Assembly (NCBI GenBank): GCA_051867815.1
Contig: JBJDZD010000053.1
Span: 1 to 57,539, forward strand
Reading direction: 5' to 3'
Origin: Eubacteriales bacterium
Lineage (GTDB): Bacteria; Bacillota; Clostridia; Oscillospirales; CAG-272
DNA: 57,539 nucleotides
Shown one piece after another: positions 918 through 22,389 of this stretch. The position numbers and the translations under genes were made by a program. Below the pieces are notes generated by a model. It worked only from the letters and a program-made list of their open reading frames with translations. It was not told the origin of the DNA and did no database searches. The first letter of the stretch is position 1. The number at the start of each line of letters is the position of its first letter.

Positions 918-924
918 CGATTCC

Positions 925-2272: not shown

Positions 2273-2361
2273 TGCTTGACTCCGTAAAACGAAATACATA
2301 TATATTATATCACATTATCGGTGATTTGTAAACAGGAAATCCGTAAAAATCCCGTAAGCAA

Positions 2362-2390
2362 AACGCCATGCGCCGACGGCGCATGGCGTT
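2362..2390 (-). terminator. stem-loop downstream of the M20 peptidase gene
   Basis: AACGCCATGCGCC-gac-GGCGCATGGCGTT, a perfect 13-bp stem. The flanking T-rich tract is weak on the minus strand. Confidence 0.5.
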
Positions 2391-2401
2391 GGTTTTGCTT
2401 T

Positions 2402-3838
2402 TCAGCACTTTTTCATAAGTCGGATGAAGAATTCGCAGGCATGCTCCAGGCATTCAAGGCGGATCTTTTCGTTGTTGCCGTGAATGGTGGCGCGCTCCCC
2501 GGCGGTCAGATCCATGGCGGAGAAGCGGTAAACACGGTCACAAATGCGACCCCAATGCCGGCTGTCCGAGCATTGCACCATCAGGTAGGGAGAAACGATG
2601 CAACCCTTCCAGGTGGATGCAACCGCACTTGCCACCTTGTCCCAGCCCTCACAGTCCGTGCGCGATATACGGCTGGGGTTCATGCCGTGAAGGCAGGAGA
2701 CCTCAACGCTCTCGTCGCCCACGGTCTTGTTGATGTAGGCAAGCGCGGAGTCCATGTCGTCCGCAGGGTTGAGGCGGATATTGGAAACCAGCGACGCCTC
2801 GGGCGGAATCACGTTCGATGCCGACGAGCCTTGCATTTGCGTGAACGCCACGGTGGTGCGCAGGAGGGCGTTCAGCTCGCCGCCGCTCTTTTTGCAGAGA
2901 AGGTCAAGCACGGGCAGGAAAATGCCGATGTTCGCGAAAATGATCCGGTAAGCAAACGAGGAATACCTTCCGAGGGTGTCAAACATCTGCGCCGCCGGAG
3001 GGGTGAGCTTGAGCTTAAACGGATTTGAAAGCATCCTCGTGCATGCGCGCGCAAGACGGTCAACGGGCGCACCCGGCTTCGGCGCGGATGCGTGACCGCC
3101 GCTTGAGCGGACAGTGTATCTGACGTCCATCATGCCCTTTTCGGCAATTCCTATAAGTCCGCAGGGCGCACTCACACCGGGGAAAACGTTTTCTACGACC
3201 GCACCTCCCTCGTCAATGACGAAGGCAGGTTCGATGCCTTGCTGCTCAAAGTAGTCGACGATTCGGATGGCACCGCGGCCATTGACCTCCTCGCCGCCCG
3301 AAAAAGCAAAATAAACGTCGTTTTCGGGGACGAAGCCCTCTCCGATAAGGTGGTCGGCGGCGAAGAGTATGCCGCCGAAGGTGACCTTCGTGTCAAGCGT
3401 GCCGCGCCCGATGATGCAGCCGTCCTTTACGATGCCCTCGAAAGCCGGGGTGTCCCAAAGCTCCTCGTTTACGGGAACGACGTCGTAATGCGCCATCATG
3501 ACGGCAGGAGCGCCGTGGTTTTTGCCGCTCCACTTAAAGAGCAGGCCGCGATCGTCAAATCGCGTGAATTCGCAAACGCGGTCAACGTTCGGGTAAAGCC
3601 GTGGCAACAGAGAGATCAGCTTTTCAAATTCCGCATCGTCCTCAAGGGATGGGTCACGGTAGGAAACGGTCTTGCATTTTACAAGCTCGATGAGGTTCTG
3701 CGCCGCCTTTTCGCGGTCAAATTCGACTGTGTCGGGGTCGATTTGCGGTTGCGCCTTCGGCTTGAAGGCAATGCCGCGAATGACGATGACGGCAAGAAAA
3801 ACCAAGAGCGCGGCAGGTATCAAAAGAAGCCAAGGCAT
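2402..3838 (-). CDS. M20/M25/M40 family metallopeptidase with an N-terminal membrane anchor
   Basis: Motifs MMAHYDVVPV and GRGTLDTK are typical of M20 peptidases. N-terminal TM segment PWLLLIPAALLVFLAVIVI. The ATG at 3838 lies 1 nt after the upstream stop. Confidence 0.8.
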   Translation of the reverse strand: MPWLLLIPAALLVFLAVIVIRGIAFKPKAQPQIDPDTVEFDREKAAQNLIELVKCKTVSYRDPSLEDDAEFEKLISLLPRLYPNVDRVCEFTRFDDRGLLFKWSGKNHGAPAVMMAHYDVVPVNEELWDTPAFEGIVKDGCIIGRGTLDTKVTFGGILFAADHLIGEGFVPENDVYFAFSGGEEVNGRGAIRIVDYFEQQGIEPAFVIDEGGAVVENVFPGVSAPCGLIGIAEKGMMDVRYTVRSSGGHASAPKPGAPVDRLARACTRMLSNPFKLKLTPPAAQMFDTLGRYSSFAYRIIFANIGIFLPVLDLLCKKSGGELNALLRTTVAFTQMQGSSASNVIPPEASLVSNIRLNPADDMDSALAYINKTVGDESVEVSCLHGMNPSRISRTDCEGWDKVASAVASTWKGCIVSPYLMVQCSDSRHWGRICDRVYRFSAMDLTAGERATIHGNNEKIRLECLEHACEFFIRLMKKC

Positions 3839-3839
3839 A

Positions 3840-4508
3840 TCAAAGCACTCCCTTCTTGTATAGGATGCGCGCGACGATAACGGTAAAGACAACGCCGACG
3901 GGTACCATTATGCCGACCGTTCCGGCGTTGAGAGCCGGGACGAAGATGAAGAGCAACAGCATCAGGATCACTGGAGCTATGGAGAGCTTGAGGTTTTTCG
4001 AGATGAAAACCACGGCAAGCCCGCCGAAGAGCGCGGGCAGTATCATGTCGAAAGCCGGCTCAAGGACGGGGGACTCCAGAATGGGCGTCAGGGGAACGAT
4101 GCAAATGACGCCGATGATGATTATGAGCGTGGTGACTATGCTTGAAACGGCAATGGCAATGGTGGAAATGACCTCGCCCTCCTCGTCGGACGCCTTAACG
4201 CCGGCACGGTCCATGGCATCTATGGCGCAGGGAAGCTTGAGGTTGGAAATGTTGCCGGTGATGAACGAAAGATAAGTGCCGCCTGCACCCAGCATGGGAA
4301 CGTAGGTGAATATTTCAACGATTCCGACCGCCCAATACATCGGCGCGGTGGCAAGCAGACCCTTGAGCAATACGGAAAAGTTCGGTACGGTACCGAATAT
4401 GAGCGAGAGCGAGAGGGGAAAGGCAAAAAGCACGAGGGCAACTGCAAAGCCCCATATTCTTCCGGCTCTGTGCGTGCCTTCCATATATGAAAGATCGGTG
4501 TTTTTCAT
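3840..4508 (-). CDS. integral membrane protein, uncharacterised
   Basis: 222 aa with multiple hydrophobic helices. AGGAGG RBS. Tightly packed with its neighbours. Confidence 0.6.
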   Translation of the reverse strand: MKNTDLSYMEGTHRAGRIWGFAVALVLFAFPLSLSLIFGTVPNFSVLLKGLLATAPMYWAVGIVEIFTYVPMLGAGGTYLSFITGNISNLKLPCAIDAMDRAGVKASDEEGEVISTIAIAVSSIVTTLIIIIGVICIVPLTPILESPVLEPAFDMILPALFGGLAVVFISKNLKLSIAPVILMLLLFIFVPALNAGTVGIMVPVGVVFTVIVARILYKKGVL

Positions 4509-4512
4509 GGAT

Positions 4513-5247
4513 TTAACCTCCTAAAAGCATGGTGAAGGGAATTGCCGAAGCCATTCCGATAATCAGGGAGAGGGGAAGCGCGTAGTCGGTCAGCCAGCGT
4601 ATCCTTGCCTTGGTGGCGATCGTGCCGCAGACAGCCATGACCACGGCAGAGGTGATCATTACGCAAACGGGAATAAGACCCGATGTGTCGCCCTTGACGA
4701 TGAGGCCGACATCACAAAAAACATAGCCGAGAAAGGCGGAAATCATACCGAGGAACATGGCGTTATTGAAGATCTCACCCCATTTTTTGTCCTTCATGCC
4801 AACCTTGGCAAGTCCGCTCTGGAGCTTTTTGGTGAGAATCGGAACGAGGATAAGACCGGCGGCGATGCCGATGGTCATGACCCATGCAATGGTTATGTAG
4901 ATCGAGGGGTCGGTGACGGTCGTGCCCGCGCTCATTCCGGCAGCCTCAAGCGCATTGCCTGCGGCAACGGTCTCGTATGTGATGGAGCCGATAACGGAAA
5001 GACGAAGCCATGGAAGAGGAACTCCGAGGCTTTTTGAGAGAGCAACGACGCCGACGAGTACGGCAATGGCAGGCGCAACCGTGAAGATGGCGGCGGAAAT
5101 GACCGTTTTCTTGATGTGTGCGCCGAGACCGAGCTGACGGGCGCGCTTTACGGCGCGGACGAGAAAATAGACCGATTGCATCAGTACGACGGCAATTATC
5201 GCACCCACAATGACGAAAAGGATAGGGGAATTAACGTTGAAGGGCAT
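4513..5247 (-). CDS. integral membrane protein, uncharacterised
   Basis: 244 aa and polytopic. GGGAGG RBS. Its start overlaps the PAP2 stop by 1 nt (TAATG). Confidence 0.6.
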   Translation of the reverse strand: MPFNVNSPILFVIVGAIIAVVLMQSVYFLVRAVKRARQLGLGAHIKKTVISAAIFTVAPAIAVLVGVVALSKSLGVPLPWLRLSVIGSITYETVAAGNALEAAGMSAGTTVTDPSIYITIAWVMTIGIAAGLILVPILTKKLQSGLAKVGMKDKKWGEIFNNAMFLGMISAFLGYVFCDVGLIVKGDTSGLIPVCVMITSAVVMAVCGTIATKARIRWLTDYALPLSLIIGMASAIPFTMLLGG

Positions 5248-6179
5248 TATTTTTTACCTCCCGGTTTTGGAAAATACTTGAACGTCATCGGCCAAAGAAT
5301 GCCGCCGACGATCACGATCAAAAAATAGCGTGCCGTTCGCGCCCAGGTGTCGGGCGGCAGAATGGCGTTGAGGGGAAATTTGAGCAGGGTCTTTGCCGCC
5401 AGAACAAGGGCAAGTCCGCCCACGACCTTGATTATCTGCGCCCACCAAACGCAAACGGTCTCGAATTTGACGAAATGCGTGTCAATGGGGTAGACCACAA
5501 GGAAGCCGAGCATGCAACCGAGCAGGGTATAGGCGTTTTTCTCAGCCGAGATGTAGTTGTGAATGTTTTCATCCGTGAAAACTTCATCGGGGAAGGGGAA
5601 AAAGGAGATGAAGCATAGATAAGCAACGACGAGGGCGGTGAGCGCGCCGAGGATTGAATACATCACGGCGGGCGAGCTTTCCGCTTTTTTGAAAAGCGGC
5701 GCACCGACGAATATGAGGACGAGCGCGACAGCTATCGAAACTCCGACGTCGGCAGGCGTGTGAACTCCGAGGTACATGCGTGAGAGGGGAACGAGAACGC
5801 AGAGCGCGATTGATACTATCGTGACGGCTTTGTTTTTCGTCGTCCGTGCAATGCCGCCGAAGGTGCCAACGGAGGTCTGCGTGTGTCCGCTGGGGAAGGA
5901 GTAGCCGGTTGCCGCCTCGCGCGCGGATTCCACTATCGTGAAGTTCGGGTCCTTGACCCACGGGCGCGGTATGCGGAAGAGCATTTTGAGAAATTGGTTG
6001 ATGACGGTGCCGACAAAGCCGATGCAGAGCAGAAAATATCCGCGGTATTTGTCAATGCACCAGAAAACTATCATGCCCACCGCCATAAATGCCGTCTCCT
6101 CACCGAGTACGGTGATAAACGAGAAGAAAAAATCCAGCACGGGATTTCTGATATCTTCCAGAAAATATAAAAATGACAT
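5247..6179 (-). CDS. PAP2 family lipid phosphatase
   Basis: PAP2 motifs KMLFRIPRP, PSGH and SRMYLGVHTPADV. Start at MSFLYF (6179) with a GGAGG RBS. Confidence 0.8.
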   Translation of the reverse strand: MSFLYFLEDIRNPVLDFFFSFITVLGEETAFMAVGMIVFWCIDKYRGYFLLCIGFVGTVINQFLKMLFRIPRPWVKDPNFTIVESAREAATGYSFPSGHTQTSVGTFGGIARTTKNKAVTIVSIALCVLVPLSRMYLGVHTPADVGVSIAVALVLIFVGAPLFKKAESSPAVMYSILGALTALVVAYLCFISFFPFPDEVFTDENIHNYISAEKNAYTLLGCMLGFLVVYPIDTHFVKFETVCVWWAQIIKVVGGLALVLAAKTLLKFPLNAILPPDTWARTARYFLIVIVGGILWPMTFKYFPKPGGKK

Positions 6180-6317
6180 GCTTTTAACCTCCGTATGCCG
6201 TAATGATCTCATGCGCATCGACCTGCGCAAGCAAGACTTTATGCGTTAATTATACCACCTCGGTCACGAATTTGCAACAATTTTTACAAAATTCAATAAA
6301 ATTTGAGGCAAAAAAAG

Positions 6318-6346
6318 TTGAAATCCTGCGCCAAATATGATATAAT
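6318..6346 (+). promoter_or_regulatory. sigma-A type promoter
   Basis: TTGAAA (6318-6323), 17-nt spacer, TATAAT (6341-6346), upstream of the 6377 gene. Confidence 0.6.
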
Positions 6347-6376
6347 TATCCCTATCCAATAAAAGGCGGTGAAATA

Positions 6377-7132
6377 ATGACAGACGTAAGAACAATGGCG
6401 TATATAAATCTCCATGCCGTGCTCGGCTCGATTCCGTTCCTGTGCGAGCTTGACGACGGCGCAAAGGAGCTTATCAAGGGCAAAAAGGTGACGGTCGGCT
6501 TTGAGGTCAAGGGCGGTCCCTCCGGCAGGCTCATCTTTGACGGCGAAAAATGCTCCTTCGCTTCGGGTTGCGAACCGTGTGTGGTCAAGTTGCCCTTCTC
6601 GTCCCCCGAAAAATTCAACGGAATGATCGACGGTGTGGTGACCCCCATCCCCTCCAAGGGATTTACGAAGATCGGATTCCTGACAGGCCCGTTTACAAAG
6701 CTGACGGACATCCTCTCCTCCTACCTCCGCGCCGATAAGGAGAAGCTCTCCGATCCCGTTTTCTTTGAAAAAAGTACGATACTCATGCTGCATTTGATCG
6801 CCTCCGCGGTCGCGCAGATCGGAAACGAGGATAAAGTGGGCCGTGCAAGCGCATCCTATATCGTTGACGGCATCATCGAGCTTGCGGTCGGCGACGAGCT
6901 TGCCGTCGGAATCGAGGCAAAGGACCATAAGCTGACCGCCCTCCATTCCGCCCCCGATACCTGCATGTCCTTTATGAGATTTGAGAGCATTCGCCTCGCT
7001 CGCGCACTCTTTGATGGTGAGGTCAATGCGGTCGCGTGCGTCGGTGAGGGCAAGATCCGCATCGGCGGTATGATCTCGCAGGTCGATAATATCAACAGGA
7101 TACTTGACCGCGTGGCACTTTATTTGGCTTGA
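6377..7132 (+). CDS. SCP2 sterol-binding-like domain protein (tentative)
   Basis: 251 aa. The C-terminal pattern GEGKIRIGGMISQVDNINRILDRVALYL resembles the SCP2 fold signature. An 8-nt gap to the next gene suggests co-transcription. Confidence 0.45.
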   Translation: MTDVRTMAYINLHAVLGSIPFLCELDDGAKELIKGKKVTVGFEVKGGPSGRLIFDGEKCSFASGCEPCVVKLPFSSPEKFNGMIDGVVTPIPSKGFTKIGFLTGPFTKLTDILSSYLRADKEKLSDPVFFEKSTILMLHLIASAVAQIGNEDKVGRASASYIVDGIIELAVGDELAVGIEAKDHKLTALHSAPDTCMSFMRFESIRLARALFDGEVNAVACVGEGKIRIGGMISQVDNINRILDRVALYLA

Positions 7133-7140
7133 GGTGAAAA

Positions 7141-8388
7141 ATGAGGAATATCAACAATTACGATAAGAGCCGCGAGGCGTTTGCTCGCGCAATGAAGGTC
7201 ATTCCCTCGGGAATTTACGGTCATCTCGGCCCTGCCGAGGGTTGTTACACCCCCGTTGAGGCGTTCCCGTTTTTCTCCTCGCGCGCACAGGGTACGTACG
7301 TTTGGGACCTCGACGGCAACAAGTTTATTGATTATATGTGCGCCTACGGCCCGAACGTCCTCGGATATAACGACCCGGACGTTGACCGCGCCGCCGCCGA
7401 GCAGAGAGCAATGGGCGACTGCACCACGCTTCCGTCCACCAGGATGATAGAGTTTGCGGAGCTGCTCGTCGATACCGTTGCCTCTGCCGATTGGGCTTTC
7501 TTCGCAAAGAACGGCAACGACGTCACCACTCTCGCCGTCATGACCGCGAGAGCGTATACACACCGCAAAAAGATCGTTTTCTTCAAGGGGTATTACCACG
7601 GCGTTTCGCCATGGACGCAGAAGATCGATTATTCCGGCGTCCTTGAAGAGGACGTAATGCATAATATTTACGTCAATTGGAACGATCTTGACGGACTTGA
7701 AAAGGTATTCAGGGAGAATAAGGGTCAGATCGCGGCGGTGATCGGCCAGCCGTATATGCACGGCAACTTCAAGGACAACGAGCTTCCGGCAAAGGGCTTC
7801 TGGCAAGAGGTGCGCAGAATGTGCACCGAAAACGGCACGGTGCTGGTGGTTGATGACGTCCGCGCAGGCTTCAGGCTTGATATTGCCGGCTCGGACCATT
7901 ATTTCGGCTTCGAGGCGGATCTGATATGCTTCTGCAAGGCACTTGCAAACGGCTATAACGTCTCCGCACTCTGCGGCAAGGAGTTCCTCAAGAATACCGT
8001 TTCGGGCATGTCGTACACGGGAAGCTATTGGCTCTCGGCTGTGCCTTTTGCCGCCGGAATCGCTTGTATAAATAAGATGAAGCAGCTTGATTGCCCACGC
8101 ATTCTCATCGAAAAGGGCACGAAGCTCAAGGAAGGTCTTATTGCCACCGCGCAGAGCTACGGTTTTGACTTGCACGTATCCGGCGTTCCCTCGCTGTTTT
8201 ATTTGCGAATTGCGGACGACCCCAGCCTGATGCTGCATCAGGAGTGGATAGCGGAGTGCGTCAAGCGCGGAGTGTTCTTCACGAATCACCACAACCACTT
8301 CATCAACGCCGCCCTCAGCGACGAGGATATCAAGGAAACCATCGAGATTGCCGACGAGGCTTTCTCCGTAATCAAAAAAAGACATTAA
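7141..8388 (+). CDS. class-III (HemL-like) PLP-dependent aminotransferase
   Basis: 415 aa. GSA-aminomutase-like N-terminus (FARAMKVIPSGIYG, YVWDLDGNKFIDY). VVDDVRAGFR and the FCKALANG Lys region. Confidence 0.85.
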   Translation: MRNINNYDKSREAFARAMKVIPSGIYGHLGPAEGCYTPVEAFPFFSSRAQGTYVWDLDGNKFIDYMCAYGPNVLGYNDPDVDRAAAEQRAMGDCTTLPSTRMIEFAELLVDTVASADWAFFAKNGNDVTTLAVMTARAYTHRKKIVFFKGYYHGVSPWTQKIDYSGVLEEDVMHNIYVNWNDLDGLEKVFRENKGQIAAVIGQPYMHGNFKDNELPAKGFWQEVRRMCTENGTVLVVDDVRAGFRLDIAGSDHYFGFEADLICFCKALANGYNVSALCGKEFLKNTVSGMSYTGSYWLSAVPFAAGIACINKMKQLDCPRILIEKGTKLKEGLIATAQSYGFDLHVSGVPSLFYLRIADDPSLMLHQEWIAECVKRGVFFTNHHNHFINAALSDEDIKETIEIADEAFSVIKKRH

Positions 8389-8542
8389 ATCAAAGCGGAC
8401 AGCCTCGCACATGGGACCGTCCGCTTCCATATTATCCCTGTTTTACAATAATAATTGATATAAATGTGAAGATGGGTTGAAGTTGGTCATGTATAATATA
8501 ACGTGAAAAATGATGAATGCATGAAAGGAACTGCATAATCCC

Positions 8543-9388
8543 ATGTTTTACATCCTCTACAATCCCCATGCAGGCAACGGCACGAGCGAACAGACCGCGC
8601 TCCGCCTCAAGGAAAGCGGCAAATACGAGCCGGCAGAGACCGTTGCAATGACCGATATCGCATCCTATACCGAATTTTTGGCAGATAAGGCAGATGCCAC
8701 CCTCATCATCTGCGGCGGCGACGGCACGCTCAACCGCTTTGTCAATGGGATCGAAGGCATCCCCCACGGCGACGTCTACTACATGGCGTCCGGCTCGGGC
8801 AACGACTTTTTGCGCGACCTCGGCATCACCGAGCAACAAGAACCTATCTGCATCAATAAGTACATAGAAAACCTCCCCGTTTGCGAGGTCAACGGCAAAA
8901 CGCTCAAGGTTCTCAACGGCGTCGGCTACGGCATCGACGGATATTGCTGTCTTGTCGGTGACAATCTCAAGGCACAGAACGTCAAGGACATCAACTACAC
9001 CGGCATTGCCATTAAGGGTCTGCTCTTCCACTATAAGCCCTCGGGCGGCACGGTAACGGTTGACGGCGAGAGCCGCCGTTACAAAAAGATATGGATCGCA
9101 TCGGGCATGAACGGCAGGTATTACGGCGGCGGCATGATGCCCACCCCCTCGCAGGACAGACTGGGCGGCAACGGCACCGTTTCCACCTGCGTTTTCCACG
9201 ATTCGGGCAAGCTCGGCACTCTCATGGTATTTCCCTCGCTCTTTAAGGGCGAGCATATCAACCACACGAAGAACGTGGACGTCCGCTCCGGCAAGAGAAT
9301 TACGGTTGAGTTTGATTCTCCCCGTCCCCTCCAGATCGACGGCGAAACCATCCCCGAGGTCAAAAAGTACAGCGTTTACTACCGCTGA
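8543..9388 (+). CDS. diacylglycerol kinase family lipid kinase (YegS/BmrU-like)
   Basis: Motifs GGDGTLN and GSGNDF. Confidence 0.85.
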   Translation: MFYILYNPHAGNGTSEQTALRLKESGKYEPAETVAMTDIASYTEFLADKADATLIICGGDGTLNRFVNGIEGIPHGDVYYMASGSGNDFLRDLGITEQQEPICINKYIENLPVCEVNGKTLKVLNGVGYGIDGYCCLVGDNLKAQNVKDINYTGIAIKGLLFHYKPSGGTVTVDGESRRYKKIWIASGMNGRYYGGGMMPTPSQDRLGGNGTVSTCVFHDSGKLGTLMVFPSLFKGEHINHTKNVDVRSGKRITVEFDSPRPLQIDGETIPEVKKYSVYYR

Positions 9389-9408
9389 AATAAATATTTT
9401 TGGAAAAA

Positions 9409-9432
9409 GACCGCATTTTGCGGTCTTTTTTT
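9409..9432 (+). terminator. rho-independent terminator
   Basis: GACCGC-atttt-GCGGTC followed by TTTTTTT. Confidence 0.75.
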
Positions 9433-9442
9433 CAAAAAGTAC

Positions 9443-9471
9443 TTGACAAATCATACTATGTGTGGTACAGT
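9443..9471 (+). promoter_or_regulatory. sigma-A promoter of the padR operon
   Basis: TTGACA (9443-9448), 17-nt spacer, TGgTACAGT extended -10 (9466-9471). Confidence 0.6.
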
Positions 9472-9494
9472 ATTATACGAAAGGAGGTATTTCG

Positions 9495-9812
9495 ATGGAT
9501 ATACAGCTCAAAAGAGGACTTCTTGATGTTTGCGTGCTTGCCGCCATCAAGAAGGAGGATTCATACGGTTATCAAATAATTAAAGACATGAAGCCATATG
9601 TTGAGATATCGGAATCAACGCTCTACCCCATTTTGCGCCGGCTTGAAGCCGCCGATCTGCTGAGTGTTCGCACAGCGGAGCATAGCGGGCGCTTGCGCAA
9701 ATACTATCACATCACGCCGGCAGGGTTGAAGCGAATAGATGATTTCAAAGACGAATGGAGAGAGATCATGTCGATTTACAGATTTGTCGCTAAGGAGGAC
9801 AAGGAAACATGA
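9495..9812 (+). CDS. PadR family transcriptional regulator
   Basis: LLDVCVLAAIKKEDSYGYQIIK...STLYPILRRLE winged-helix signature. AAGGAGG RBS before the ATG at 9495. Confidence 0.85.
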   Translation: MDIQLKRGLLDVCVLAAIKKEDSYGYQIIKDMKPYVEISESTLYPILRRLEAADLLSVRTAEHSGRLRKYYHITPAGLKRIDDFKDEWREIMSIYRFVAKEDKET

Positions 9813-10408
9813 CTAAAACAGAATTTTTGACCGAGCTGGAGCGTGCCCTTTCGGGGCTTCCGCAAGAGGATATAAGAAAAAGCCTTGATTTCTATGCGGA
9901 AATGATAGATGAGCGCACTGAGGACGGCGTCAGCGAGGAGGAGGCGGTTGCCGCGCTCGGCGATATTGGGAATATCAGAACGCAGATCATCGGCGAAGTG
10001 CCGCTGGGTCGAATCGTAAAAGAGCGCATCAAGCCAAATCGCAAGCTCCGCGCTTGGGAGATAGTGCTTATCGCACTCGGCTCACCCATATGGCTTTCGC
10101 TGGCGGTGGCGGCAATATCAATAATATTTGCGGTTTTCGCCGTGCTGTGGTCCGTTGATATTTCAATTTTCGCGGTAGCCTTCGGATGCGGAGCGTTCTT
10201 CATCGCATCCATACCGGCAGCCGTGGTATTCTTCATCAACGCCAACACGCCGAATGCCCTCTTTTTGCTGGGCTGCGGTATGCTCGGCGGCGGCCTGTGC
10301 CTGTTTATCTGCATGGCCGGAGTACATTGTGCTCGCGCATGCTTTTGGCTGTGCAAAAAGCTCATTCACGGCATTAAATCCGCGTTCACCGCGAAAGGAG
10401 ACGAATAA
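9809..10408 (+). CDS. DUF1700 (HAAS) membrane protein
   Basis: N-terminus MTKTEFLTELERALSGLPQEDIRKSLDFYAEMIDE followed by C-terminal TM helices. ATGA overlap with padR. Confidence 0.75.
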   Translation: MTKTEFLTELERALSGLPQEDIRKSLDFYAEMIDERTEDGVSEEEAVAALGDIGNIRTQIIGEVPLGRIVKERIKPNRKLRAWEIVLIALGSPIWLSLAVAAISIIFAVFAVLWSVDISIFAVAFGCGAFFIASIPAAVVFFINANTPNALFLLGCGMLGGGLCLFICMAGVHCARACFWLCKKLIHGIKSAFTAKGDE

Positions 10409-11367
10409 TGAAAAACAAATCACTTGGCACGGTAATCGTTGCCGTTTTACTGACTGTTGCCGGCATTGCTCTCGCCTGCGCGGCACTCATAATGATAGAT
10501 TTTGATTTTTTGCGCCTGTCAACGGACGATTTTGAGGAGGTCACGCATGTGATCGAGGGAGATTTTGACGGTTTGCGCATAGAAGTGGACACGCACGACG
10601 TTTCCATCCTTCCGTCCGAGGACGGAGCTTGCCGCCTGGTGGTGCACGAGAGCGAAAAAGTCAAATTCCGCATCGAGCAAAAGGGCGGCGTGCTTGAAAT
10701 CACCGTTGATAACAACATGAAGTGGTACGATCACATCGGTATCAGCTTCGGCAAAAAGTCGTTTACCCTCTACCTGCCCGAAAACGAGTATGAATCCCTC
10801 TCCGTAAGCACCGATACCGGAAACATTGACGTTCCCGATGGCTTTGCTTTCGGTGACGTTTCCTTGGAGACGGACACGGGTGACGTTGATATTTGCGGTG
10901 TCGTTTGTAACGCTCTTGATATCGACGGCGAAACGGGCAAGATCAAGCTCATGGATGTGAGCGCAGATCGGATCACGGCACAAACCTCAACGGGCGACGT
11001 TACGCTCCTTGAGGTCAAGTGCAATGAAATCAGGGCAAGGACCTCCACCGGCTTCGTACATCTTGAAGAAGCAAACAGCACGGGTATCACGGACGTCAAG
11101 ACCGGTACCGGTAAGGTGTCGCTCAACAAGTGTGTTTCCGGCGAGTTTCGCATCGAGACGAACACGGGTGACGTCAAATTCGACGCCTCGGATGCCGACG
11201 AGATATGGGTCAAGACCGGCACGGGCAGTGTTTCGGGTTATCTTCTCACAGAAAAGCTATTCACCGTAAACACCGGAACGGGAAAAATCGACGTTCCCGA
11301 AAGCCACGGGGATAAGCGTTGCAGCATCACTACGGGAACGGGTAATATTACGATCAGGATAGATTGA
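10408..11367 (+). CDS. DUF4097 beta-strand repeat protein
   Basis: Repeated T(D/S/G/N)TG(D/N/K)(V/I) units (TDTGNIDV, TSTGDVTL, TGTGKVSL and others). N-terminal TM segment. 1-nt overlap with the upstream gene. Confidence 0.8.
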   Translation: MKNKSLGTVIVAVLLTVAGIALACAALIMIDFDFLRLSTDDFEEVTHVIEGDFDGLRIEVDTHDVSILPSEDGACRLVVHESEKVKFRIEQKGGVLEITVDNNMKWYDHIGISFGKKSFTLYLPENEYESLSVSTDTGNIDVPDGFAFGDVSLETDTGDVDICGVVCNALDIDGETGKIKLMDVSADRITAQTSTGDVTLLEVKCNEIRARTSTGFVHLEEANSTGITDVKTGTGKVSLNKCVSGEFRIETNTGDVKFDASDADEIWVKTGTGSVSGYLLTEKLFTVNTGTGKIDVPESHGDKRCSITTGTGNITIRID

Positions 11368-11443
11368 GCTGAATGCATTGACAGCTCCGTTTTAGCGACG
11401 AAAACGCACATTTCGCTTAAGCACGAGTGATCTCATAAAAAAC

Positions 11444-11474
11444 GAGTCAAAAGCTCCTTGAAGGCTTTTGACTC
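11444..11474. terminator. bidirectional rho-independent terminator between convergent genes
   Basis: GAGTCAAAAGC-tccttgaag-GCTTTTGACTC with an A-run upstream and a T-run downstream. It overlaps the stop codon of the minus-strand gene. Confidence 0.75.
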
Positions 11475-12915
11475 AGTTTTTTCCGTGTACCTTACCGCAC
11501 CGCGGGCAAACGGTCTCACCGGTCTGTGTGACGGGCGTGATATTTCTGAACCGGCAAACGCCCTCGGCGCTTTCGGTGCGACTTTTGCCGCTTTTTGTGC
11601 GGAAATTCTTGATCGCGGTCAGGTAAAAGCTCTCGCCCGTGTCGGGGCAGGTCTCTTCCGATATAACGGTGCGGCATGCTCCGCATTCGTAAAGCGAGCC
11701 GCCACTCTCGGCGCGTTTAAGCGCTTTGCCGCAGAACGGGCAGGTGTCGCGCTTGCCGTCGGCGTAGACCATGGCGCGCAGGAGCAGCTGTTGTATGCGG
11801 CGGAATGAATCGATATCATGGAGGTCAAGGCGCAGGTCGGCATCACCGTTCGGGTCTGCCGCCAAAACCTCGTCCGCTTCGATATCCGCCCTTTCGTAAA
11901 GGCAAAGAGCCGTTTTATACTCGCGCTCCTTGCGGACCGTCAGCATCAGCGCACCGTGCTCGCGCCTGATATTCAGCGCAAAGCCGCCGAAAGAGGCGTC
12001 GACGTCGATATTCTTGAAGTCGATCTCTGCACGATCGTCAAATCTGAAGTTGAAATGGCCTGCGGCAAAAACGCACAGCAAGGAGCAATATGCAAAATAT
12101 TCGCTACGCTTCAGCCGCGGCTCGGGAACGACCGCACCGTCAAGCCCGATGCTTGAAAAATATTTGGCAAGCGAATAAAGACGGCGGTAATCCTTGTGTG
12201 AACGGAAAATATTCGTCTTTTTCAGCTCGAGCTTGTTTTTTCTCTTGCGACACTGCCGATAAACGGGGGCTTTCAGCCGTGAGCTGAGAGCATTTTCCAC
12301 GGTTCGGAGCTTTTCCGAGCAGCGCTCAATTGGAAGCAGATATTGGTCGTAGTCTCGCAGATATCCCGTGTGCAGCTTGCCGAGGGCAATAAAAAACATG
12401 GGGTGGTTCTCGCGCTCAAGGAGATTGAAGCGCAATTCGCGGTTAGCATGTAGCATATCTTGCAGAATACGCTGATTTTTGGCAACGAAAGAGAGGATCA
12501 GGTCAATCGTCTGCGCAAACACCAGGTTTTCGTATATTGCGTAGTCGTCATCCTGACGGACGGTCATCAGCTTGCGCGGCACGAGAGCGTCGCCCTTGAC
12601 GCTTTCCCACAGCTCGCTGTGAACGGCGATGTGTGAGAGCGTTTTGTTGTTGACTACGCGAACCGCTTCCGCAGGGAGTATTTCGCCGGAATCGCGCAAG
12701 CGAATGATGGGCAGGGCGAAAATGCGCTTGATCGAGGGGAGAACCGCGATTATTCGGTCAAGCACACCATCAAGCATGGCAAGATCCATGTCCTCGCGCA
12801 AAGCAAAGAGGTTCAGCCCCGACTGCACGTCGGTATCGAATTTTTCATAGCTTACCGCGTTTTCGGCGTATTGCTCCGCCGCCGCGTAACCTTCAAGTCT
12901 TTCGTCAGTCATCAT
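11473..12915 (-). CDS. McrC-like / DUF2357-like protein with a C-terminal double zinc ribbon; no evident PD-(D/E)xK motif
   Basis: 480 aa. The DDDYAIYENLVFAQTIDLIL segment resembles the DUF2357 (McrC N-terminal) ENR-type motif. C-terminus has CPFCG..CGAC and CPDTG..CPRCG (encoded about 11476-11750). The start overlaps the stop of the AAA+ gene. Confidence 0.55.
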   Translation of the reverse strand: MMTDERLEGYAAAEQYAENAVSYEKFDTDVQSGLNLFALREDMDLAMLDGVLDRIIAVLPSIKRIFALPIIRLRDSGEILPAEAVRVVNNKTLSHIAVHSELWESVKGDALVPRKLMTVRQDDDYAIYENLVFAQTIDLILSFVAKNQRILQDMLHANRELRFNLLERENHPMFFIALGKLHTGYLRDYDQYLLPIERCSEKLRTVENALSSRLKAPVYRQCRKRKNKLELKKTNIFRSHKDYRRLYSLAKYFSSIGLDGAVVPEPRLKRSEYFAYCSLLCVFAAGHFNFRFDDRAEIDFKNIDVDASFGGFALNIRREHGALMLTVRKEREYKTALCLYERADIEADEVLAADPNGDADLRLDLHDIDSFRRIQQLLLRAMVYADGKRDTCPFCGKALKRAESGGSLYECGACRTVISEETCPDTGESFYLTAIKNFRTKSGKSRTESAEGVCRFRNITPVTQTGETVCPRCGKVHGKN

Positions 12916-15286
12916 TCAGGCTCAAAATGAAGTCGGAACAACGGCAAAGACCGAGCTTTTCAAACTCCGCCGCCAATTCTTCCTTATCGACCACGCTCTT
13001 GAATTCCAGCTTGGCAACGACCTTGCTGAGCAGTATACGCTCCAGACCGTCCGAGATAGCCTTCTCCGTTGCGCCGAAGCAGGCGGCGTAAATACGGACG
13101 AAATCCTCCATTTGTCTTGCAATACGGTTGCCGAAGGATATGTTGTAGGGCGCGAGGAGTGCTTCGACCTCACCGACGACGGGCGCGGCTTCGATATCAA
13201 AGTAAACGGAAGCCTTTGCTTCCTCAAAAAGCTCGCACAGGGCGGCGGCGGAAAGGTATCTCTGAGCCATGGGTTCGCCATAGGAGCGCACCTTGGGCGC
13301 GCGCTTGTTGAAATTCATGGTGTGGGCGCGGTCGTAGACCTTATCGCTGATCTCAAACGTGCTTTCGTCGCGGTTTGCCGTTCCGACGAACCAAACGTTT
13401 TGCGGAATGCTTATCGTGGTGCCGTCCTTAAGACCGATATAGCGGTAGCTTAAGCTATCGCGGCGGCGGTAGAGCGGTGTGCCGAGGAGCTTTATTTCGC
13501 GGTGGCCCTCCTCGTTTTCCATGAGGGATAGAAAATCCGAGAAATAATACTCAATGCGCGAGAGATTCATCTCGTCGAGAACGATGAAGGTGGGTACTTC
13601 GGGCATAAGGCGCGCGCGGTAGAGCGCGAGAGTGAACTTTTTGGGCGTATAAATGCGGCTGAATTCATTGTAATAGCCGAGCAACTCGTTCTTATCACGC
13701 CACGCGGACTCAACCTCAACGATATTGCATTCACCGAGTACCGCTTCGGCAAAGATCTTGGGCAGGCTTGTCTTACCGGTTCCGCTCATGCCCTGCAATA
13801 TGGTAAGTCTGGTCGCGCCGAGACCTGCAATGAAAGCGGCGACATCCTCCGGCGTGTAAATGAGGTGCAGGCGCGAGTCGCGCGCGTATTTTACGACGAA
13901 ATCAACTATCTCGCCGAGAGTGGGATTCTCGAAAGCGTTTACATCCTTGTCCTCAAGGGAAGCTCGCATCGACTCGTATCCGTTATCGATCGAGGTGAAC
14001 GCCGGGCATGGGTCGTGGTCGCCGGGGGAGAGGGGCGCGGTGCTTTCCTCGGGCATCGGTGCGGAAAAACCGGACGGGTCATAGATCGCGCCTGCGCCGC
14101 TCAGGAAAACGGTCAGCTCGCTCTTTGTGCCGCGCGAATAGGGCTTGCGCAAAAGCATCAGACAAAGCACGCCCACCGCGGCAATGAAGAACCAAAACAC
14201 GGAGCTTTTCACCTCGTAGGTGAATTGGAATTTTTCCGGATCAAAAAACTGTTCCCAATAACCGTGATCAAAGTCGGCAAGCACGCGTAGTATCCAAGCG
14301 GTGATGATATCCTTGTTTATATCCTTGGCAATCGAAAAATACAAGCCGAAAACGCCGATGACGAAGGTGGTAACGGTACCGACGACTGTTTGCAGAATTG
14401 AGAGCTGCCAGAAGGCCTTTGATCGACCGATGAGGGCGCAGAGGGAGGTAAGAATAAAAGCGCAGTTCGCGGCAACGAAGACAACGACGAAGAAGGTGAG
14501 TATCTGCATGCTTCCCGGAACCTCGGCTGTTCCCTTAAGGGCTTCGAGGCCGTTAAAGTACATTTCGGGAGAATCAAAGCTCGGCTTGACCGTTAAAATA
14601 TCGCCGAGTGCGGCGAATATCGCAAGTAAGGTAACGGCACTTGCGTATATAAACTGCTCAATGCGCACCCCTGCGGCGGTTTTCTTCGGCTTGCGAGCTT
14701 CGTCCGCCGGTGTGATATTGCGCGTAAGGAATACGAAGATAATGACGATGCATACGGATATCAACAGGGGTGGGCAGAAGCAATGCCCGTATGTGAAGGG
14801 GAAGTCGTCGCGCATGTTTTGCGTGCAGGAAAAGAGTATGCTTGCTACATAGAAAGCGCCGGTGACGGATACGGTGTATACTGTCAGTGCTTGAGCCAAA
14901 CCGAAGAATCTTTCGTCGCTCGCGCCGTATCTGCGTACGACGCGCAAGAGCATAAAGGCGCCCACCGTGCCGAAAATCACTATCGCAACGAATACCGCTA
15001 CCGTTCCGATGGCGACGAAGTCGGTATAGAACATTTGACCGCCGACGACGATGATATCCTTCGTAAGATCGAAGATGTTCGTAGCCTTGACTATTATTTC
15101 GGCGGCGTTGCCCTGAATGTCAATATAACTGATTTTGTTGAAAGGAACGTTTATCAGCCAAAAAATCAGCATCGTCGAGATGATGCACAGGCCGAGGACG
15201 GTCAGCCTTCGCGCGCGGTCGCTGAATGCCGGGAGAGTGATGATGGTTTGACCGCCCTTACTATTTTGATTCTTATTCGTTGTCAT
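12905..15286 (-). CDS. polytopic membrane domain fused to a McrB-type (AAA_5) NTPase
   Basis: 793 aa. About 8 hydrophobic helices in residues 1-385. Walker A GMSGTGKT (13769-13792). Walker B plus McrB-style helix VLDEMNLSRIEYYFSDFLS (from 13566-13583). GTANRDE resembles McrB GTMNTADRS. GGGGG RBS. Confidence 0.65.
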   Translation of the reverse strand: MTTNKNQNSKGGQTIITLPAFSDRARRLTVLGLCIISTMLIFWLINVPFNKISYIDIQGNAAEIIVKATNIFDLTKDIIVVGGQMFYTDFVAIGTVAVFVAIVIFGTVGAFMLLRVVRRYGASDERFFGLAQALTVYTVSVTGAFYVASILFSCTQNMRDDFPFTYGHCFCPPLLISVCIVIIFVFLTRNITPADEARKPKKTAAGVRIEQFIYASAVTLLAIFAALGDILTVKPSFDSPEMYFNGLEALKGTAEVPGSMQILTFFVVVFVAANCAFILTSLCALIGRSKAFWQLSILQTVVGTVTTFVIGVFGLYFSIAKDINKDIITAWILRVLADFDHGYWEQFFDPEKFQFTYEVKSSVFWFFIAAVGVLCLMLLRKPYSRGTKSELTVFLSGAGAIYDPSGFSAPMPEESTAPLSPGDHDPCPAFTSIDNGYESMRASLEDKDVNAFENPTLGEIVDFVVKYARDSRLHLIYTPEDVAAFIAGLGATRLTILQGMSGTGKTSLPKIFAEAVLGECNIVEVESAWRDKNELLGYYNEFSRIYTPKKFTLALYRARLMPEVPTFIVLDEMNLSRIEYYFSDFLSLMENEEGHREIKLLGTPLYRRRDSLSYRYIGLKDGTTISIPQNVWFVGTANRDESTFEISDKVYDRAHTMNFNKRAPKVRSYGEPMAQRYLSAAALCELFEEAKASVYFDIEAAPVVGEVEALLAPYNISFGNRIARQMEDFVRIYAACFGATEKAISDGLERILLSKVVAKLEFKSVVDKEELAAEFEKLGLCRCSDFILSLNDD

Positions 15287-15314
15287 GGCTTGACCCCCTC
15301 GAAGATATATATCA

Positions 15315-15343
15315 ATTATAACAGCTTTTTATCAATCTGTCAA
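15315..15343 (-). promoter_or_regulatory. consensus sigma-A promoter of the McrBC-like operon
   Basis: On the minus strand: TTGACA (15338-15343), 17-nt spacer, TATAAT (15315-15320). Confidence 0.7.
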
Positions 15344-15373: not shown

Positions 15374-15412
15374 CGAAAAAAATCGCCCGAGGTTTCATTT
15401 CTTCGGGCGATT
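15374..15412 (-). terminator. rho-independent terminator of the ddh-dapB-dapA operon
   Basis: AATCGCCCGA / TCGGGCGATT stem followed on the minus strand by TTTTT. A second hairpin, TTGAACAAAAA / TTTTTGTTCAA, lies at 15420-15451. Confidence 0.75.
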
Positions 15413-15459
15413 CTCCGTATTGAACAAAAAGGGGAGTGAATTTTTGTTCAATTTGATTA

Positions 15460-19750: not shown

Positions 19751-20122
19751 ATGAAACTTGCCGAATCGGGGGAAATGTACCTCGAAACCATATATCTTCT
19801 TTCGCAGTCGTCGAGCGCGGTGCGCTCCGTTGACGTTGCGGAAAGTCTCGGATATTCCAAGCCGAGCGTCAGCCGTGCCATCGGAATACTGAAAACCGGG
19901 GAATACGTCACCGTTGACCGTTCGGGCTTTATCACGCTGACCGAAAAGGGGTACCAAACGGCTCATAATCTCTACGAACGCCACACGATACTGACGGATA
20001 TGCTCGTTTGGCTCGGAGTTGACCAAAGCATTGCCGCCGAGGACGCATGCAAGATCGAGCACGTTATAAGCGCAGAGTCTTTCGAAGCCATAAAGAATCA
20101 TATCAGAGGTAAAAAATTATGA
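19751..20122 (+). CDS. DtxR/MntR family metal-dependent transcriptional regulator
   Basis: SGEMYLETIYLL...VRSVDVAESLGYSKPSVSRAI...ERHTILTDML. Confidence 0.85.
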   Translation: MKLAESGEMYLETIYLLSQSSSAVRSVDVAESLGYSKPSVSRAIGILKTGEYVTVDRSGFITLTEKGYQTAHNLYERHTILTDMLVWLGVDQSIAAEDACKIEHVISAESFEAIKNHIRGKKL

Positions 20123-22389
20123 CGACATTCATCCGCATCATTCCCTACGTTGTAATTCTGGCGATAGCCGCTATCATCGGCTTCGCCAAAGGCGCGAAAA
20201 AGAGTCTGATATCCCTCATCAGGACGTTTGCGTCGCTTACCGTAGCTTTTATTGCGGTCGCCGTGTTCTGCCGCACCGTCCCCGGAAGCACGCTTTTGGC
20301 GCAGCTGTTTGCCTCATCCGACACCGAGCTGCTTCAGTCATCCGCAATTCAAAACGTTATCGGCGATATTGCTTACAGCCTTGCCGCGCCGTTTGCCTTC
20401 CTCGTGCTTTTCATCATAGTTGATCTGATCATGCGCATACCTGCCGCCGTGATAGGCCGCGCCGTGGGCACGGATGCACCCTCATCAACGGGCGGACGCA
20501 TGGCAGGTGCAGCTCTTAAAGCTGTCACGGCGTTTGCGGTTCTGCTCGTACTCACCATGCCCTTCGCGAACGTTTTTTGCTCGCTGACGGACGGCGTTCT
20601 TAAGATCACGAATGCCGCCAAGGAAGAAAACGTTCAGGTAGACACCGAGAGTCCCGATATCGTGATCGCCGGCGAATATTATCTGACGGACGGGAACGGC
20701 ATCCTCAACACGGAAGAGGTTGACCGTATGGCGGCAGATATAGTTGAACCCGTCCGCGCGGACGTTATGGTCAAGCTCTCCTATTCATTCCCCATGCGCT
20801 TGATGTGCAATGCCATGACGGGCGCGACCGACGCAAGCCGGGGAGCGCGCAACGAGCTTTCACAGCTCTTTGACGTTGCGGCGGCGGCAGTCAGCTTTGT
20901 ATCTCCGCTCGAAGATTACGGCGACAATCAAAAGGAGGCGATCTCGCTGATAGTTGAATATATTGCCGAATCCAAAGCTCACTGCGAGGCTGTGGCGGAC
21001 GCGGTCGCCTACCTTGCGCAAAACGTCATCGAGGAGGGTGACACACCCCTCGGTGAGGGCAATATCACGATAATCACCTCGCCCCTGTTTGACATCCTCG
21101 CAAATACCACTCCGGACACGGTCGCAGAGGATTTTTACACTCTTCGCGACATCATCGTCATCATGATCGATTACGATATTCCGGCAGAGATTGCCGTCGC
21201 GCTTGCGAATGAGTCGCCCGAAGCACTTGTGAGGACTTTTGCCAACGAGGAATTCCTTTACGAATTGCTCGGCAGTCTTTACGCAAACGATGACTACCGC
21301 CACATGATCGCGCCCGTGCTTGACTATGCCTTCACGGTCATCATGCAGGAATTCGATCCGACCGTCGCGCGCATGTATGTAGCCAAGGTCCCCGAAAGCT
21401 ACACCGAAGACTTTTTGCGCAGCGAGGCGAAAATATTCTCGTCTGTATTTAAGGACGGATACGAGATAATGCAGATTGCTCCCAATCTCAGCGGATCCGG
21501 CTCATATTCCGTTATACTTAACACCGATCTTTCGGCATTCGGTCGTTTCGTTGATACCACTCGTGCAAGCGTGATGATCGGCGACGGTGTGACAGAGCTT
21601 TTCCTGGCAATTCTGAGAAGCAGCTCCTTTGACAGCCTGCGCAGCGTAGCGGATGTTCTCGTCAAAAATATCGAGTCCGGAACGGATGTAAGTGTTGAGA
21701 GCCTGCTCATTGCAACGCAGAACTTTATTAAAATATCCGACTTGTGCATTTCCGAGGGTAAAACCGACACTCTTACCGTTGCCTCTGCCATGCGCGAGAT
21801 AAATACGGCTTGCGACGAGGAAACTGCGAAACTCCTTAAGGAAATTATTGTGGAAAGCGACATCGTATCCGAGATAGTTGCCACGGATAACAAGAATGAA
21901 GACGCGGCCGACACTGCTTCAAAGGCTGTCGGCGTTATGATCGAAGAGCTGGCTACCGGTGATTTTACCGACGAGGAATACGAAGAAGAGGCCAAGGCAA
22001 TCGATATTTCCATGAAGATACTCAGCGCAACCACTCAAGAGGAGGTTGATGAGCTTTACAGCGACGAGGAAAACACTCGCGAAATGGTTGAGGTCATGGC
22101 AAACTCCAAGATCGCATCCGCCGCCATGATCGAGATAGCGTATGAGGACGGCGACCCGAGCAAGCCCCTCACCGACGATGCCCTCGACCTCAAGGATAAG
22201 GTTAGCGAGACGGGCAGGGATAATGTCCGCGAGGAATGTAAGGAGTATTATATGGATGTCCTCTCAAAGGGAGAGGACACCTCTCAGATAGAAATTAATT
22301 TCAAAGCCCTTTCGGCAATCCTCGACCTCGGAATCACCGATGACGTGCTCGGATCGTGGAGTGCGGAAGCTAATGAACCTACTGCATAA
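20119..22389 (+). CDS. large acidic membrane protein with a CvpA-like N-terminus, uncharacterised
   Basis: 756 aa. N-terminal TM helices followed by a long D/E-rich domain. ATGA overlap with the regulator's stop. Confidence 0.6.
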   Translation: MTTFIRIIPYVVILAIAAIIGFAKGAKKSLISLIRTFASLTVAFIAVAVFCRTVPGSTLLAQLFASSDTELLQSSAIQNVIGDIAYSLAAPFAFLVLFIIVDLIMRIPAAVIGRAVGTDAPSSTGGRMAGAALKAVTAFAVLLVLTMPFANVFCSLTDGVLKITNAAKEENVQVDTESPDIVIAGEYYLTDGNGILNTEEVDRMAADIVEPVRADVMVKLSYSFPMRLMCNAMTGATDASRGARNELSQLFDVAAAAVSFVSPLEDYGDNQKEAISLIVEYIAESKAHCEAVADAVAYLAQNVIEEGDTPLGEGNITIITSPLFDILANTTPDTVAEDFYTLRDIIVIMIDYDIPAEIAVALANESPEALVRTFANEEFLYELLGSLYANDDYRHMIAPVLDYAFTVIMQEFDPTVARMYVAKVPESYTEDFLRSEAKIFSSVFKDGYEIMQIAPNLSGSGSYSVILNTDLSAFGRFVDTTRASVMIGDGVTELFLAILRSSSFDSLRSVADVLVKNIESGTDVSVESLLIATQNFIKISDLCISEGKTDTLTVASAMREINTACDEETAKLLKEIIVESDIVSEIVATDNKNEDAADTASKAVGVMIEELATGDFTDEEYEEEAKAIDISMKILSATTQEEVDELYSDEENTREMVEVMANSKIASAAMIEIAYEDGDPSKPLTDDALDLKDKVSETGRDNVREECKEYYMDVLSKGEDTSQIEINFKALSAILDLGITDDVLGSWSAEANEPTA

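Follow-up and report, generated by a model that had tools for sequence, protein, structure and literature searches.

A membrane-fused McrB-like GTPase and its McrC-like partner without nuclease motifs in uncultured gut Clostridia

McrBC is the textbook GTP-driven restriction enzyme, and the locus described here raises the question of what such a motor may do when it is joined to a membrane domain and paired with a partner that carries no recognisable nuclease. The locus lies in a 57,539-nucleotide stretch of DNA from a Eubacteriales bacterium (assembly GCA_051867815.1, contig JBJDZD010000053.1, positions 1 to 57,539 of the forward strand), called the window below, and comprises two minus-strand genes, gene 1 and gene 2. 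An earlier note, made from the letters of the sequence alone, had proposed that the two genes form a candidate undescribed defence module. In this study, the architecture, relatives and genomic setting of the pair were analysed; all findings were obtained in silico and come from uncultured organisms. We consider a cellular or hard-wired role more likely than that of a mobile anti-phage cassette, because the surroundings are syntenic, defence neighbours are absent and the motor is under strong constraint.

CoCoNuTs are relatives of McrBC and have been predicted to be RNA-targeting immune systems (Bell et al., eLife 2024, PMC11090510). Judged by its sequence, the pair is a stripped-down, membrane-anchored derivative of the CnuB/CnuC core of these systems, in which a polytopic membrane domain would have replaced the coiled coil and the helicase and HEPN-type companions would have been lost. 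This assignment is based on the GTPase half of gene 1, which is 53%/44% identical to one coiled-coil CnuB-like protein in BLASTP, on the PADLOC model PDC-M26A, which matches both gene 1 and the CnuB-like proteins of CoCoNuT-like operons, and on gene 2, which aligns end to end with CnuC-like proteins. The genes and their transcription signals are as follows.

12905..15286, minus strand: gene 1, 793 aa, NxD-branch McrB-like GTPase fused to a membrane domain (PADLOC PDC-M26A, E=1.3e-51; AAA_5 in homologues; BLASTP)
11473..12915, minus strand: gene 2, 480 aa, McrC/CnuC-like partner without nuclease motifs (aligns with CnuC-like proteins over its whole length)
15315..15343, minus strand: promoter of the sigma-70/sigmaA type (TTGACA, 17 nt, TG-n-TATAAT; 12/12 against the consensus, with an extended -10 TG)
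11444..11474, both strands: bidirectional intrinsic terminator (12-bp stem, T-runs on both strands), common to gene 2 and the convergent DUF4097 gene

Both open reading frames (ORFs) are intact and share 11 nt (ATGATGACTGA). Promoters scoring at least 11/12 were found 20-40 nt 5' of gene 1 in 16 related loci. Nothing besides gene 1 and gene 2 lies between promoter and terminator, where neither a third operon gene nor an associated nuclease was found, and related loci gave the same picture. Two overlapping minus-strand genes with their own perfect promoter and a bidirectional terminator had been described in the earlier note, and the sequence bears all of this out; the motifs quoted there, including four hydrophobic stretches, are likewise all present. 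The two genes are considered real because each has hundreds of homologues and because comparison with the nearest relative shows purifying selection on both, the ratio of nonsynonymous to synonymous substitution rates (dN/dS) being 0.25 in gene 1 and 0.15 in gene 2. These and all dN/dS and dS values below refer to one genome pair, namely, the window and its nearest relative (L156).

The upstream dapA-dapB-ddh operon ends in a terminator of its own (about 15376-15410), in which T7 follows a GC-rich stem. A second hairpin was observed after the ddh stop (window 15376-15451, minus strand), where the 11-bp inverted repeat TTGAACAAAAA...TTTTTGTTCAA occupies about 15420-15451. With two hairpins after its stop, the ddh operon is thus insulated from the gene 1 promoter.

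Gene 1 is divided into three parts.

12908..14014, minus strand: residues 425-793, helical lead-in with DPCPAF, AAA+ core and lid (near-invariant blocks in 26 homologues)
14015..14149, minus strand: residues 380-424, RKPYSRG motif followed by a variable, low-confidence linker (alignment and AlphaFold2 model)
14150..15220, minus strand: residues 23-379, eight predicted transmembrane (TM) helices, the loops on the outside contributing short beta strands (hydropathy, lysine/arginine distribution, AlphaFold2 model)

The GTPase half carries the clearest motifs. Walker A (GMSGTGKT, residues 499-506) and Walker B (IVLDEMN, 568-574) are invariant in the 26 homologues, and the signature GTANRDE (635-641), a shortened N-x-D-E form, lies in a block, WF(V/I)GTANRDEST, that is invariant in 26/26. 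An NxD motif one residue shorter defines the branch of McrB-like GTPases that holds CoCoNuTs and CoCoPALMs (Bell et al., eLife 2024, PMC11090510). Mean identity across the same homologues reaches 81% in the AAA core and 65% in the lid, and the family as a whole is about 45% identical. Constraint is strong here, with dN/dS of 0.12 over residues 425-793 and 0.04 over codons 501-600.

Strong matches of gene 1 were obtained to NxD relatives only (PDC-M26A, E=1.3e-51; BLASTP, E=7e-55), and its sequence similarity to E. coli McrB is weak (E=0.007). In Foldseek, the C-terminal half weakly matches dynein, MCM and Thermococcus gammatolerans McrB (6ut4_D, E=4.5e-3), and a family-profile search of PDB sequences with the narrow gene 1 profile recovered no McrB. 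The AAA_5 and DUF2357 resemblances noticed earlier fared differently in single proteins and in families. Gene 1 alone scores 19.1 bits for AAA_5, below the 22-bit cut-off, and 25 of its 26 homologues match at E<=0.01; gene 2 alone gives E=0.11 for DUF2357, and 21/28 of its homologues match at E<=0.01 (best 7e-6). More distant relatives linked to gene 2 by profile pass the DUF2357 gathering cut-off, with 31.3 and 36.4 bits against 23.3. Both assignments therefore rest on family-level and transitive evidence, as the two proteins themselves score below the Pfam thresholds.

The N-terminal half of gene 1 is of another kind. No Pfam domain and no N-terminal nucleic-acid reader was found in residues 1-385, where the eight membrane helices lie. 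The polytopic N-terminus claimed for this McrB-type NTPase is thus supported, with eight hydrophobic segments in Kyte-Doolittle hydropathy and eight long helices in the AlphaFold2 model of gene 1 (residues 23-46, 89-118, 124-158, 172-187, 201-227, 258-287, 292-319 and 364-379; mean predicted local distance difference test score (pLDDT) 75.8), in which short beta strands rise from the outside loops. Alternating lysine- and arginine-rich loops fit an N-in/C-in topology, which places the GTPase domain in the cytoplasm. Across 26 homologues, mean identity is 25% in TM1-4 and 35% in TM5-8, and the invariant residues of the membrane domain are E210, G246, S289, G314, Y316, N324 and RxPY at 380-383. 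In the joining segment, R380, P382 and Y383 are invariant, the linker differs in length and composition among homologues, and pLDDT falls below 50 at residues 384-408. From these predictions, gene 1 should be an eight-helix membrane domain joined via a variable linker to a highly constrained, cytoplasm-facing, NxD-type McrB GTPase.

Longer gene 1 homologues of 880-900 aa (P0168, P0180, P0183, P0190, P0201, P0212 and P0237; alignment A2, columns 1-140) have an extra N-terminal part of ~130 residues with ~4 more hydrophobic helices, giving ~12 TM helices in total.

Structural comparison of the membrane half gave a lead and no family. Foldseek of the gene 1 model returned no match below E=1e-3. 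For the membrane half, claudins, TARPs and LetA appeared at E about 0.08-0.3, with a Foldseek probability of 0.77 for LetA (9n8w_A) and 0.97-0.99 for the best claudin/TARP matches, and a TM-score to target of 0.25-0.5. The claudin/TARP bundles and LetA, of the LetAB lipid transporter, likewise consist of four-helix units with outside beta strands, but no sequence family match links them to the membrane domain, and the likeness is one of fold only. We treat this modelled resemblance as a lead and not as a classification. An internal duplication of a four-helix unit is suggested by hhalign, in which TM1-4 and TM5-8 align in register but weakly (E=0.029, probability 1.7%).

Gene 2 would be the McrC-like half of the machine, and the following parts were delimited in it.

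12511..12738, minus strand: residues 60-135, DUF2357 core (HSELW, PRKL, YAIYEN) that includes a beta hairpin predicted for 103-113 (alignment, AlphaFold2, Pfam)
11818..12129, minus strand: residues 263-366, domain of helix plus five or six beta strands at the position of the McrC nuclease (AlphaFold2, pLDDT about 94)
11476..11757, minus strand: residues 387-480, two zinc sites and the FRNIT motif (invariant or near-invariant cysteines and histidine; Zn_ribbon_IS1595, E=8.8e-5)

The gene 2 family comprises at least 655 clusters at 90% identity. Its invariant motifs in a 28-sequence alignment are HSExW, P(R/K)KL, YxxYEN, LLxRxxH, KLH, FRxxKDY, GHF, DxxSFRR, CPFCG...CxxC and RN; the motif DDDYAIYEN quoted earlier stands at residues 122-130. 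The AlphaFold2 model (pLDDT 76.8, predicted template modelling score 0.73) is confident nearly throughout, except at residues 72-123. Residues 60-135 are 65% identical, second only to the helix 367-386 at 80%, yet they are modelled with low pLDDT. A stretch that is conserved but of low confidence as a single chain shows the pattern that one expects of partner-dependent folding, and the hairpin region is, by analogy with McrC, a candidate for a pore-inserting, GTPase-stimulating finger.

Is the pair then simply a type IV (McrBC) restriction enzyme whose nuclease has diverged too far to be recognised? The helix-plus-beta-sheet domain 263-366 sits where the McrC nuclease would, but no nuclease Pfam family was found in 28 gene 2 homologues, and no conserved D..(D/E)xK acidic/lysine triad in 28 close or 35 distant ones. 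When the gene 2 model was compared with the PDB in Foldseek, the best E was 0.24 and the matches included no nuclease and no McrC fold, a null result that neither confirms nor excludes either fold structurally. Among PDB sequences, the family profile gave non-significant matches only, to a ribbon of the eL43 type (E=0.017) and to synaptotagmin C2 (E>0.1). The label 'inactivated PD-(D/E)xK', considered for residues 263-366 by analogy with type II CnuC, was not adopted. As membrane helices also stand in place of the McrB DNA-reader domain, a divergent restriction enzyme is very improbable, and the earlier description of a McrC/DUF2357-like partner with no detectable nuclease agrees with the Pfam, alignment and fold searches.

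The same note had counted two Cys4-type ribbons in gene 2, of which the first stands and the second must be amended. Ribbon 1 has four cysteines, C392, C395, C411 and C414 (CPFCG 392-396, CGAC 411-414), whereas the second site combines three, C423, C470 and C473 (CPDTG 423-427, CPRCG 470-474), with a near-invariant H477. Distant relatives carry CxxC at 423-426 in an otherwise identical C-terminal layout.

These distant relatives point to the kinship of the pair. A profile search with gene 2 among 1.84 billion representatives gave 1,419 relatives, the more distant of which are 600-920 aa long and keep the layout of gene 2: DUF2357 core, TNIF, (D/I)NSFRR, CPxCG...CxxC, CxxC, F(K/R)NI and CPxCG. 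Their loci are four-gene operons encoding an Upf1-like helicase, a ~530-aa protein, a McrB-like GTPase and a DUF2357/zinc-ribbon protein. The GTPase has a long E/K-rich coiled coil (as in L068_825 and L065_737) and a GTAN(K/Q)DE motif, and some operons also hold a Ser/Thr kinase. This four-gene architecture is that of CoCoNuT as described, including a CnuC with inactivated nuclease and CPxC ribbons (PMC11090510). The same operon was found on Deinococcus and Nostoc plasmids and on one unverified 'Bacteriophage sp.' scaffold.

That scaffold (L157, MT835511.1, from human faeces) holds a full CoCoNuT-like four-gene operon at 118-7812, in which the helicase is accompanied by a protein of 535 aa, a coiled-coil NxD GTPase of 824 aa and a DUF2357/zinc-ribbon protein of 689 aa; a gene for a LexA-like repressor lies ~1 kb downstream.

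The closest known system is the type II-like CoCoNuT with a nuclease-dead, zinc-ribbon CnuC. Both have the NxD(E) signature in a McrB-like GTPase, a DUF2357 partner with CPxC ribbons and no catalytic nuclease residues, and a B gene whose reading frame overlaps that of the C gene behind it. The pair differs in that the long coiled coil, either fused to CnuB or separate as CnuA, is missing and an 8-TM domain (12-TM in some homologues) is present instead; CnuH helicase, CnuE/HEPN and TerY-P genes and an active CnuC nuclease are also missing, and the setting is chromosomal, syntenic and housekeeping, not islands or plasmids. Canonical McrBC (E. coli, Thermococcus gammatolerans) is more remote. It shares the AAA+ fold, Walker A and B, the sensor-1 asparagine motif and a DUF2357 partner encoded directly downstream, but gene 1 has NxD and not NxxD, with membrane helices in place of an N-terminal modified-DNA reader, and gene 2 has zinc ribbons and no PD-(D/E)xK nuclease.

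This kinship allows a reading in which the TM domain only anchors a CnuBC-like GTPase at a DNA entry site or near membrane-bound RNA for nucleic-acid surveillance, and an unlinked host nuclease cleaves in trans. A role in nucleic-acid binding has been proposed for CnuC zinc ribbons similar to those of gene 2 (PMC11090510), a weak resemblance (E=0.017) links ribbon 1 to the ribosomal RNA-binding ribbon of eL43, and a membrane domain of 25-35% identity is as poorly conserved as anchors often are. However, 8-12 helices with structured outside loops and six invariant residues (E210, G246, S289, G314, Y316 and N324) exceed the needs of an anchor. No nuclease gene is linked to the pair at any locus, whereas CoCoNuTs with a dead CnuC nuclease reportedly always encode a nuclease alongside (PMC11090510). 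We regard membrane-tethered surveillance as improbable.

Membrane attachment within the NxD branch has a precedent in CoCoPALM, a NxD McrB-like GTPase fused to an FtsB-like transmembrane and coiled-coil segment, which has been named and not analysed (PMC11090510), and the McrBC census in that paper names membrane attachment for CoCoPALM only. In both CoCoPALM and gene 1, an NxD-branch GTPase is held at the membrane, which suggests repeated recruitment of this branch to membrane-associated roles. CoCoPALM is described as having one FtsB-like helix together with coiled coils, and as lying next to signal-peptidase or pilus-assembly genes (PMC11090510); gene 1 differs in its eight helices and in lacking a coiled coil, and neighbours of that kind were seen at none of its loci. 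The PADLOC candidate system PDC-M26 is the other entry to compare. Its A profile matches the GTPase half, with the best-scoring stretch at gene 1 residues 472-601, outside the membrane half, but it is the only component matched, since neither gene 2 (at E<=1) nor its relatives match any PADLOC model. The PADLOC check suggested by the earlier note thus yielded a match for gene 1 and none for gene 2. No description of PDC-M26 was found in the literature. Likewise, the literature searched yielded no account of a McrB with a polytopic membrane domain, and the text supplements of the CoCoNuT paper (PMC11090510) have nothing on membrane forms. The claim of an undescribed module can therefore be kept in part. 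The polytopic-membrane form of the NxD GTPase appears to be undescribed; a nuclease-dead, zinc-ribbon McrC-like partner is already known from CoCoNuTs (PMC11090510), and membership of the NxD/CoCoNuT branch had been missed.

A second, more distant membrane-fused lineage was observed in a JGI metagenome (L072, 3300010049, positions 7706-14498), in a housekeeping context and with the gene order C, lipoprotein, B. Its C-like protein has 613 aa; the lipoprotein has 510 aa with ~24-residue acidic 'WDYV.F.ELLDNEDFM.VYRELL' repeats; and B is a 937-aa NxD McrB-like protein with a Pro/Gln/Tyr-rich N-terminus and ~9 membrane helices.

The distribution of the pair bears on whether it acts in defence. Carriers are uncultured animal-gut Clostridia (Eubacteriales, Acutalibacteraceae, Oscillospiraceae and Candidatus Scatosoma), with 54 GTDB species representatives, and gene 1 lies immediately 5' of gene 2 at every locus where the contig permits. 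Housekeeping neighbourhoods were found at ~18 loci in ~10 clearly distinct arrangements. The order dapA-dapB-ddh-gene1-gene2 is kept in 13 loci (L004, L005, L012-L019, L021, L156 and the window), across which gene 2 identity goes down to 55-61%, with Ddh remaining at 81-84% and DapA at about 88%. In other clades, the pair lies near ddh, pcrA and DUF2179; directly 3' of the F1Fo ATP synthase (atp) operon and ahead of mscS; between fba/pfkB and polA-coaE; beside proC-proA-proB; or beside rpsI/rplM. The flanks in the window encode PAP2, aminotransferase, DAGK, PadR-HAAS-Toastrack, Ddh, DapB and citrate synthase.

No defence systems or mobile elements were found within 6-10 kb on either side at ~18 loci, and no close homologues on plasmids or phages. 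The 93 flanking proteins from 8 further loci have metabolic Pfam matches, and two of them match PADLOC models, both generic (a PcrA-like UvrD helicase and a tandem ABC ATPase). PADLOC matches to mad3, mad8 and AriA in the flanks were all traced to one tandem ABC ATPase and rejected as generic. The GC content is flat across the region. Values of dS are 0.44 for gene 2 and 0.39 for the GTPase half, within the range of the flanking ddh, dapB, dapA and citrate synthase (0.31-0.54), and these parts have therefore diverged in place. We read the pair as vertically inherited in a clade of animal-gut Clostridia. The proposal of a defence module is accordingly not upheld, as homologues keep their synteny with housekeeping genes and are not associated with defence islands, a finding that the earlier note itself had listed against it.

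Abortive-infection-type defence nevertheless deserves its own weighing. The zinc-ribbon C protein would sense a phage cue and activate a hexamer of B, whose TM domain would depolarise or permeabilise the membrane, so that the infected cell is killed or arrested. The nearest relatives are CoCoNuT-like operons that are predicted to be immune and lie in part on plasmids or a phage-like scaffold, gene 1 matches a candidate-defence model in PADLOC (PDC-M26A), and the membrane domain is the sole effector candidate, no enzymatic one being present. The outward-facing N-terminal segment evolves fast, the dS pattern is mosaic, and a strong constitutive promoter is compatible with a standing sentinel. 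However, no defence genes or mobile elements occur within 10 kb on either side at ~18 loci, synteny is stable across species-level genomes with dS at the level of the flanks, and the GC content is unremarkable. The GTPase core is constrained like a housekeeping gene (dN/dS 0.04), and no PADLOC model matches gene 2 or its relatives. Abortive infection is somewhat unlikely on this balance.

We tentatively prefer a domesticated cellular or hard-wired lineage function, in which the pair would be a GTP-driven machine acting through the membrane, and give this reading a little less than an even chance. An AAA core that is 81% identical in a family of ~45% identity and the conserved promoter were also counted in its favour. 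A more specific form is possible and held with greater doubt, namely, that a McrBC-type motor has been domesticated as a core membrane machine with a nuclease-free McrC-like switch and a claudin/LetA-like domain that moves or gates lipid or envelope components.

The mechanism of such a machine can be outlined from the solved McrBC structures, in which, according to Niu et al. (2020) as cited in PMC11090510, B forms a hexameric ring and the DUF2357 hairpin of C enters its pore, where a conserved basic residue stimulates GTP hydrolysis. By analogy, B would be a membrane-tethered hexameric ring held under the membrane by six variable linkers of ~40 residues each. The DUF2357 hairpin of C would enter the pore of B and switch GTP hydrolysis on, with PRKL (residues 113-116 of gene 2) as the obvious candidate for the stimulating basic residue. 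The zinc-ribbon and beta-domain end of C may be the part that senses a ligand or binds a partner. Motor work would pass via the linker to the membrane domain and be used there to move, gate or remodel some component of the membrane or envelope. Because no enzymatic effector is present (no nuclease, helicase or HEPN partner), the output is expected to be a conformational change of the 48-helix membrane assembly.

Several observations weigh against a cellular function or against a simple picture of a core gene. Outside the family, all identifiable relatives belong to operons of the conflict type, part of which lie on plasmids or the phage-like scaffold, and no conserved functional partner gene points to a cellular process. 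Hexamer formation, GTPase stimulation and membrane output are themselves inferences drawn by analogy. Gene 1 is also uneven in its evolution, as a comparison of window 14087-15286 (codons 1-400) with L156 10001-11200 revealed. Codons 1-100, which encode TM1 and the first outside loop, are fast (dN 0.20, dS 0.32, dN/dS 0.63), and over codons 101-400 dS drops to 0.014-0.077, ~ten-fold below the background of 0.3-0.5. Such a mosaic is suggestive of recombination, which conflict genes often undergo; the low dS of the TM2-8 segment could reflect recent recombination or synonymous constraint. Furthermore, 80 Ddh-anchored metagenome loci from other lineages (Ddh 65-78% identical) have no pair nearby, so the distribution is lineage-restricted, and every pair locus was found through the pair itself. 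One metagenome-assembled genome, RGIG3910 (JAFTKV01), appears to hold two copies of the pair (L026 and L032, gene 2 48%/44% identical to the window), which could be paralogues or the result of bin contamination.

A McrBC-like motor-plus-plug core that lacks a nuclease and is joined to a polytopic membrane domain implies that the motor can be coupled to a quite different output. If the pair is immune, it would add a new effector logic to type IV-like systems, that is, a membrane effector gated by a GTPase and residing in the core genome. With a cellular role, abundant uncultured gut Firmicutes would offer a clear example of how an immune motor was exapted for the biology of the envelope or membrane, and, should the domesticated membrane machine prove right, the McrBC module would be seen for the first time in a membrane-coupled use outside immunity. 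Members of this large and sharply defined family are unannotated, with labels of only 'hypothetical protein' or 'AAA family ATPase'.

Two further features of the window were recorded. A three-gene PadR - HAAS (DUF1700-like) - Toastrack/DUF4097 module lies at 9462-11367 on the plus strand, between the DAGK gene and gene 2. At this position, sister genomes have DAGK directly (L004/L005), DAGK ~2.4 kb downstream of gene 2 (the L012 clade) or a TMEM164-family gene (L156), and the module therefore looks like a lineage-specific insertion. At 20119-22389 on the plus strand, an ORF of 756 aa matches no Pfam family at E<=1e-5, and its syntenic counterpart in L156 is a 755-aa gene beside an iron-dependent repressor.

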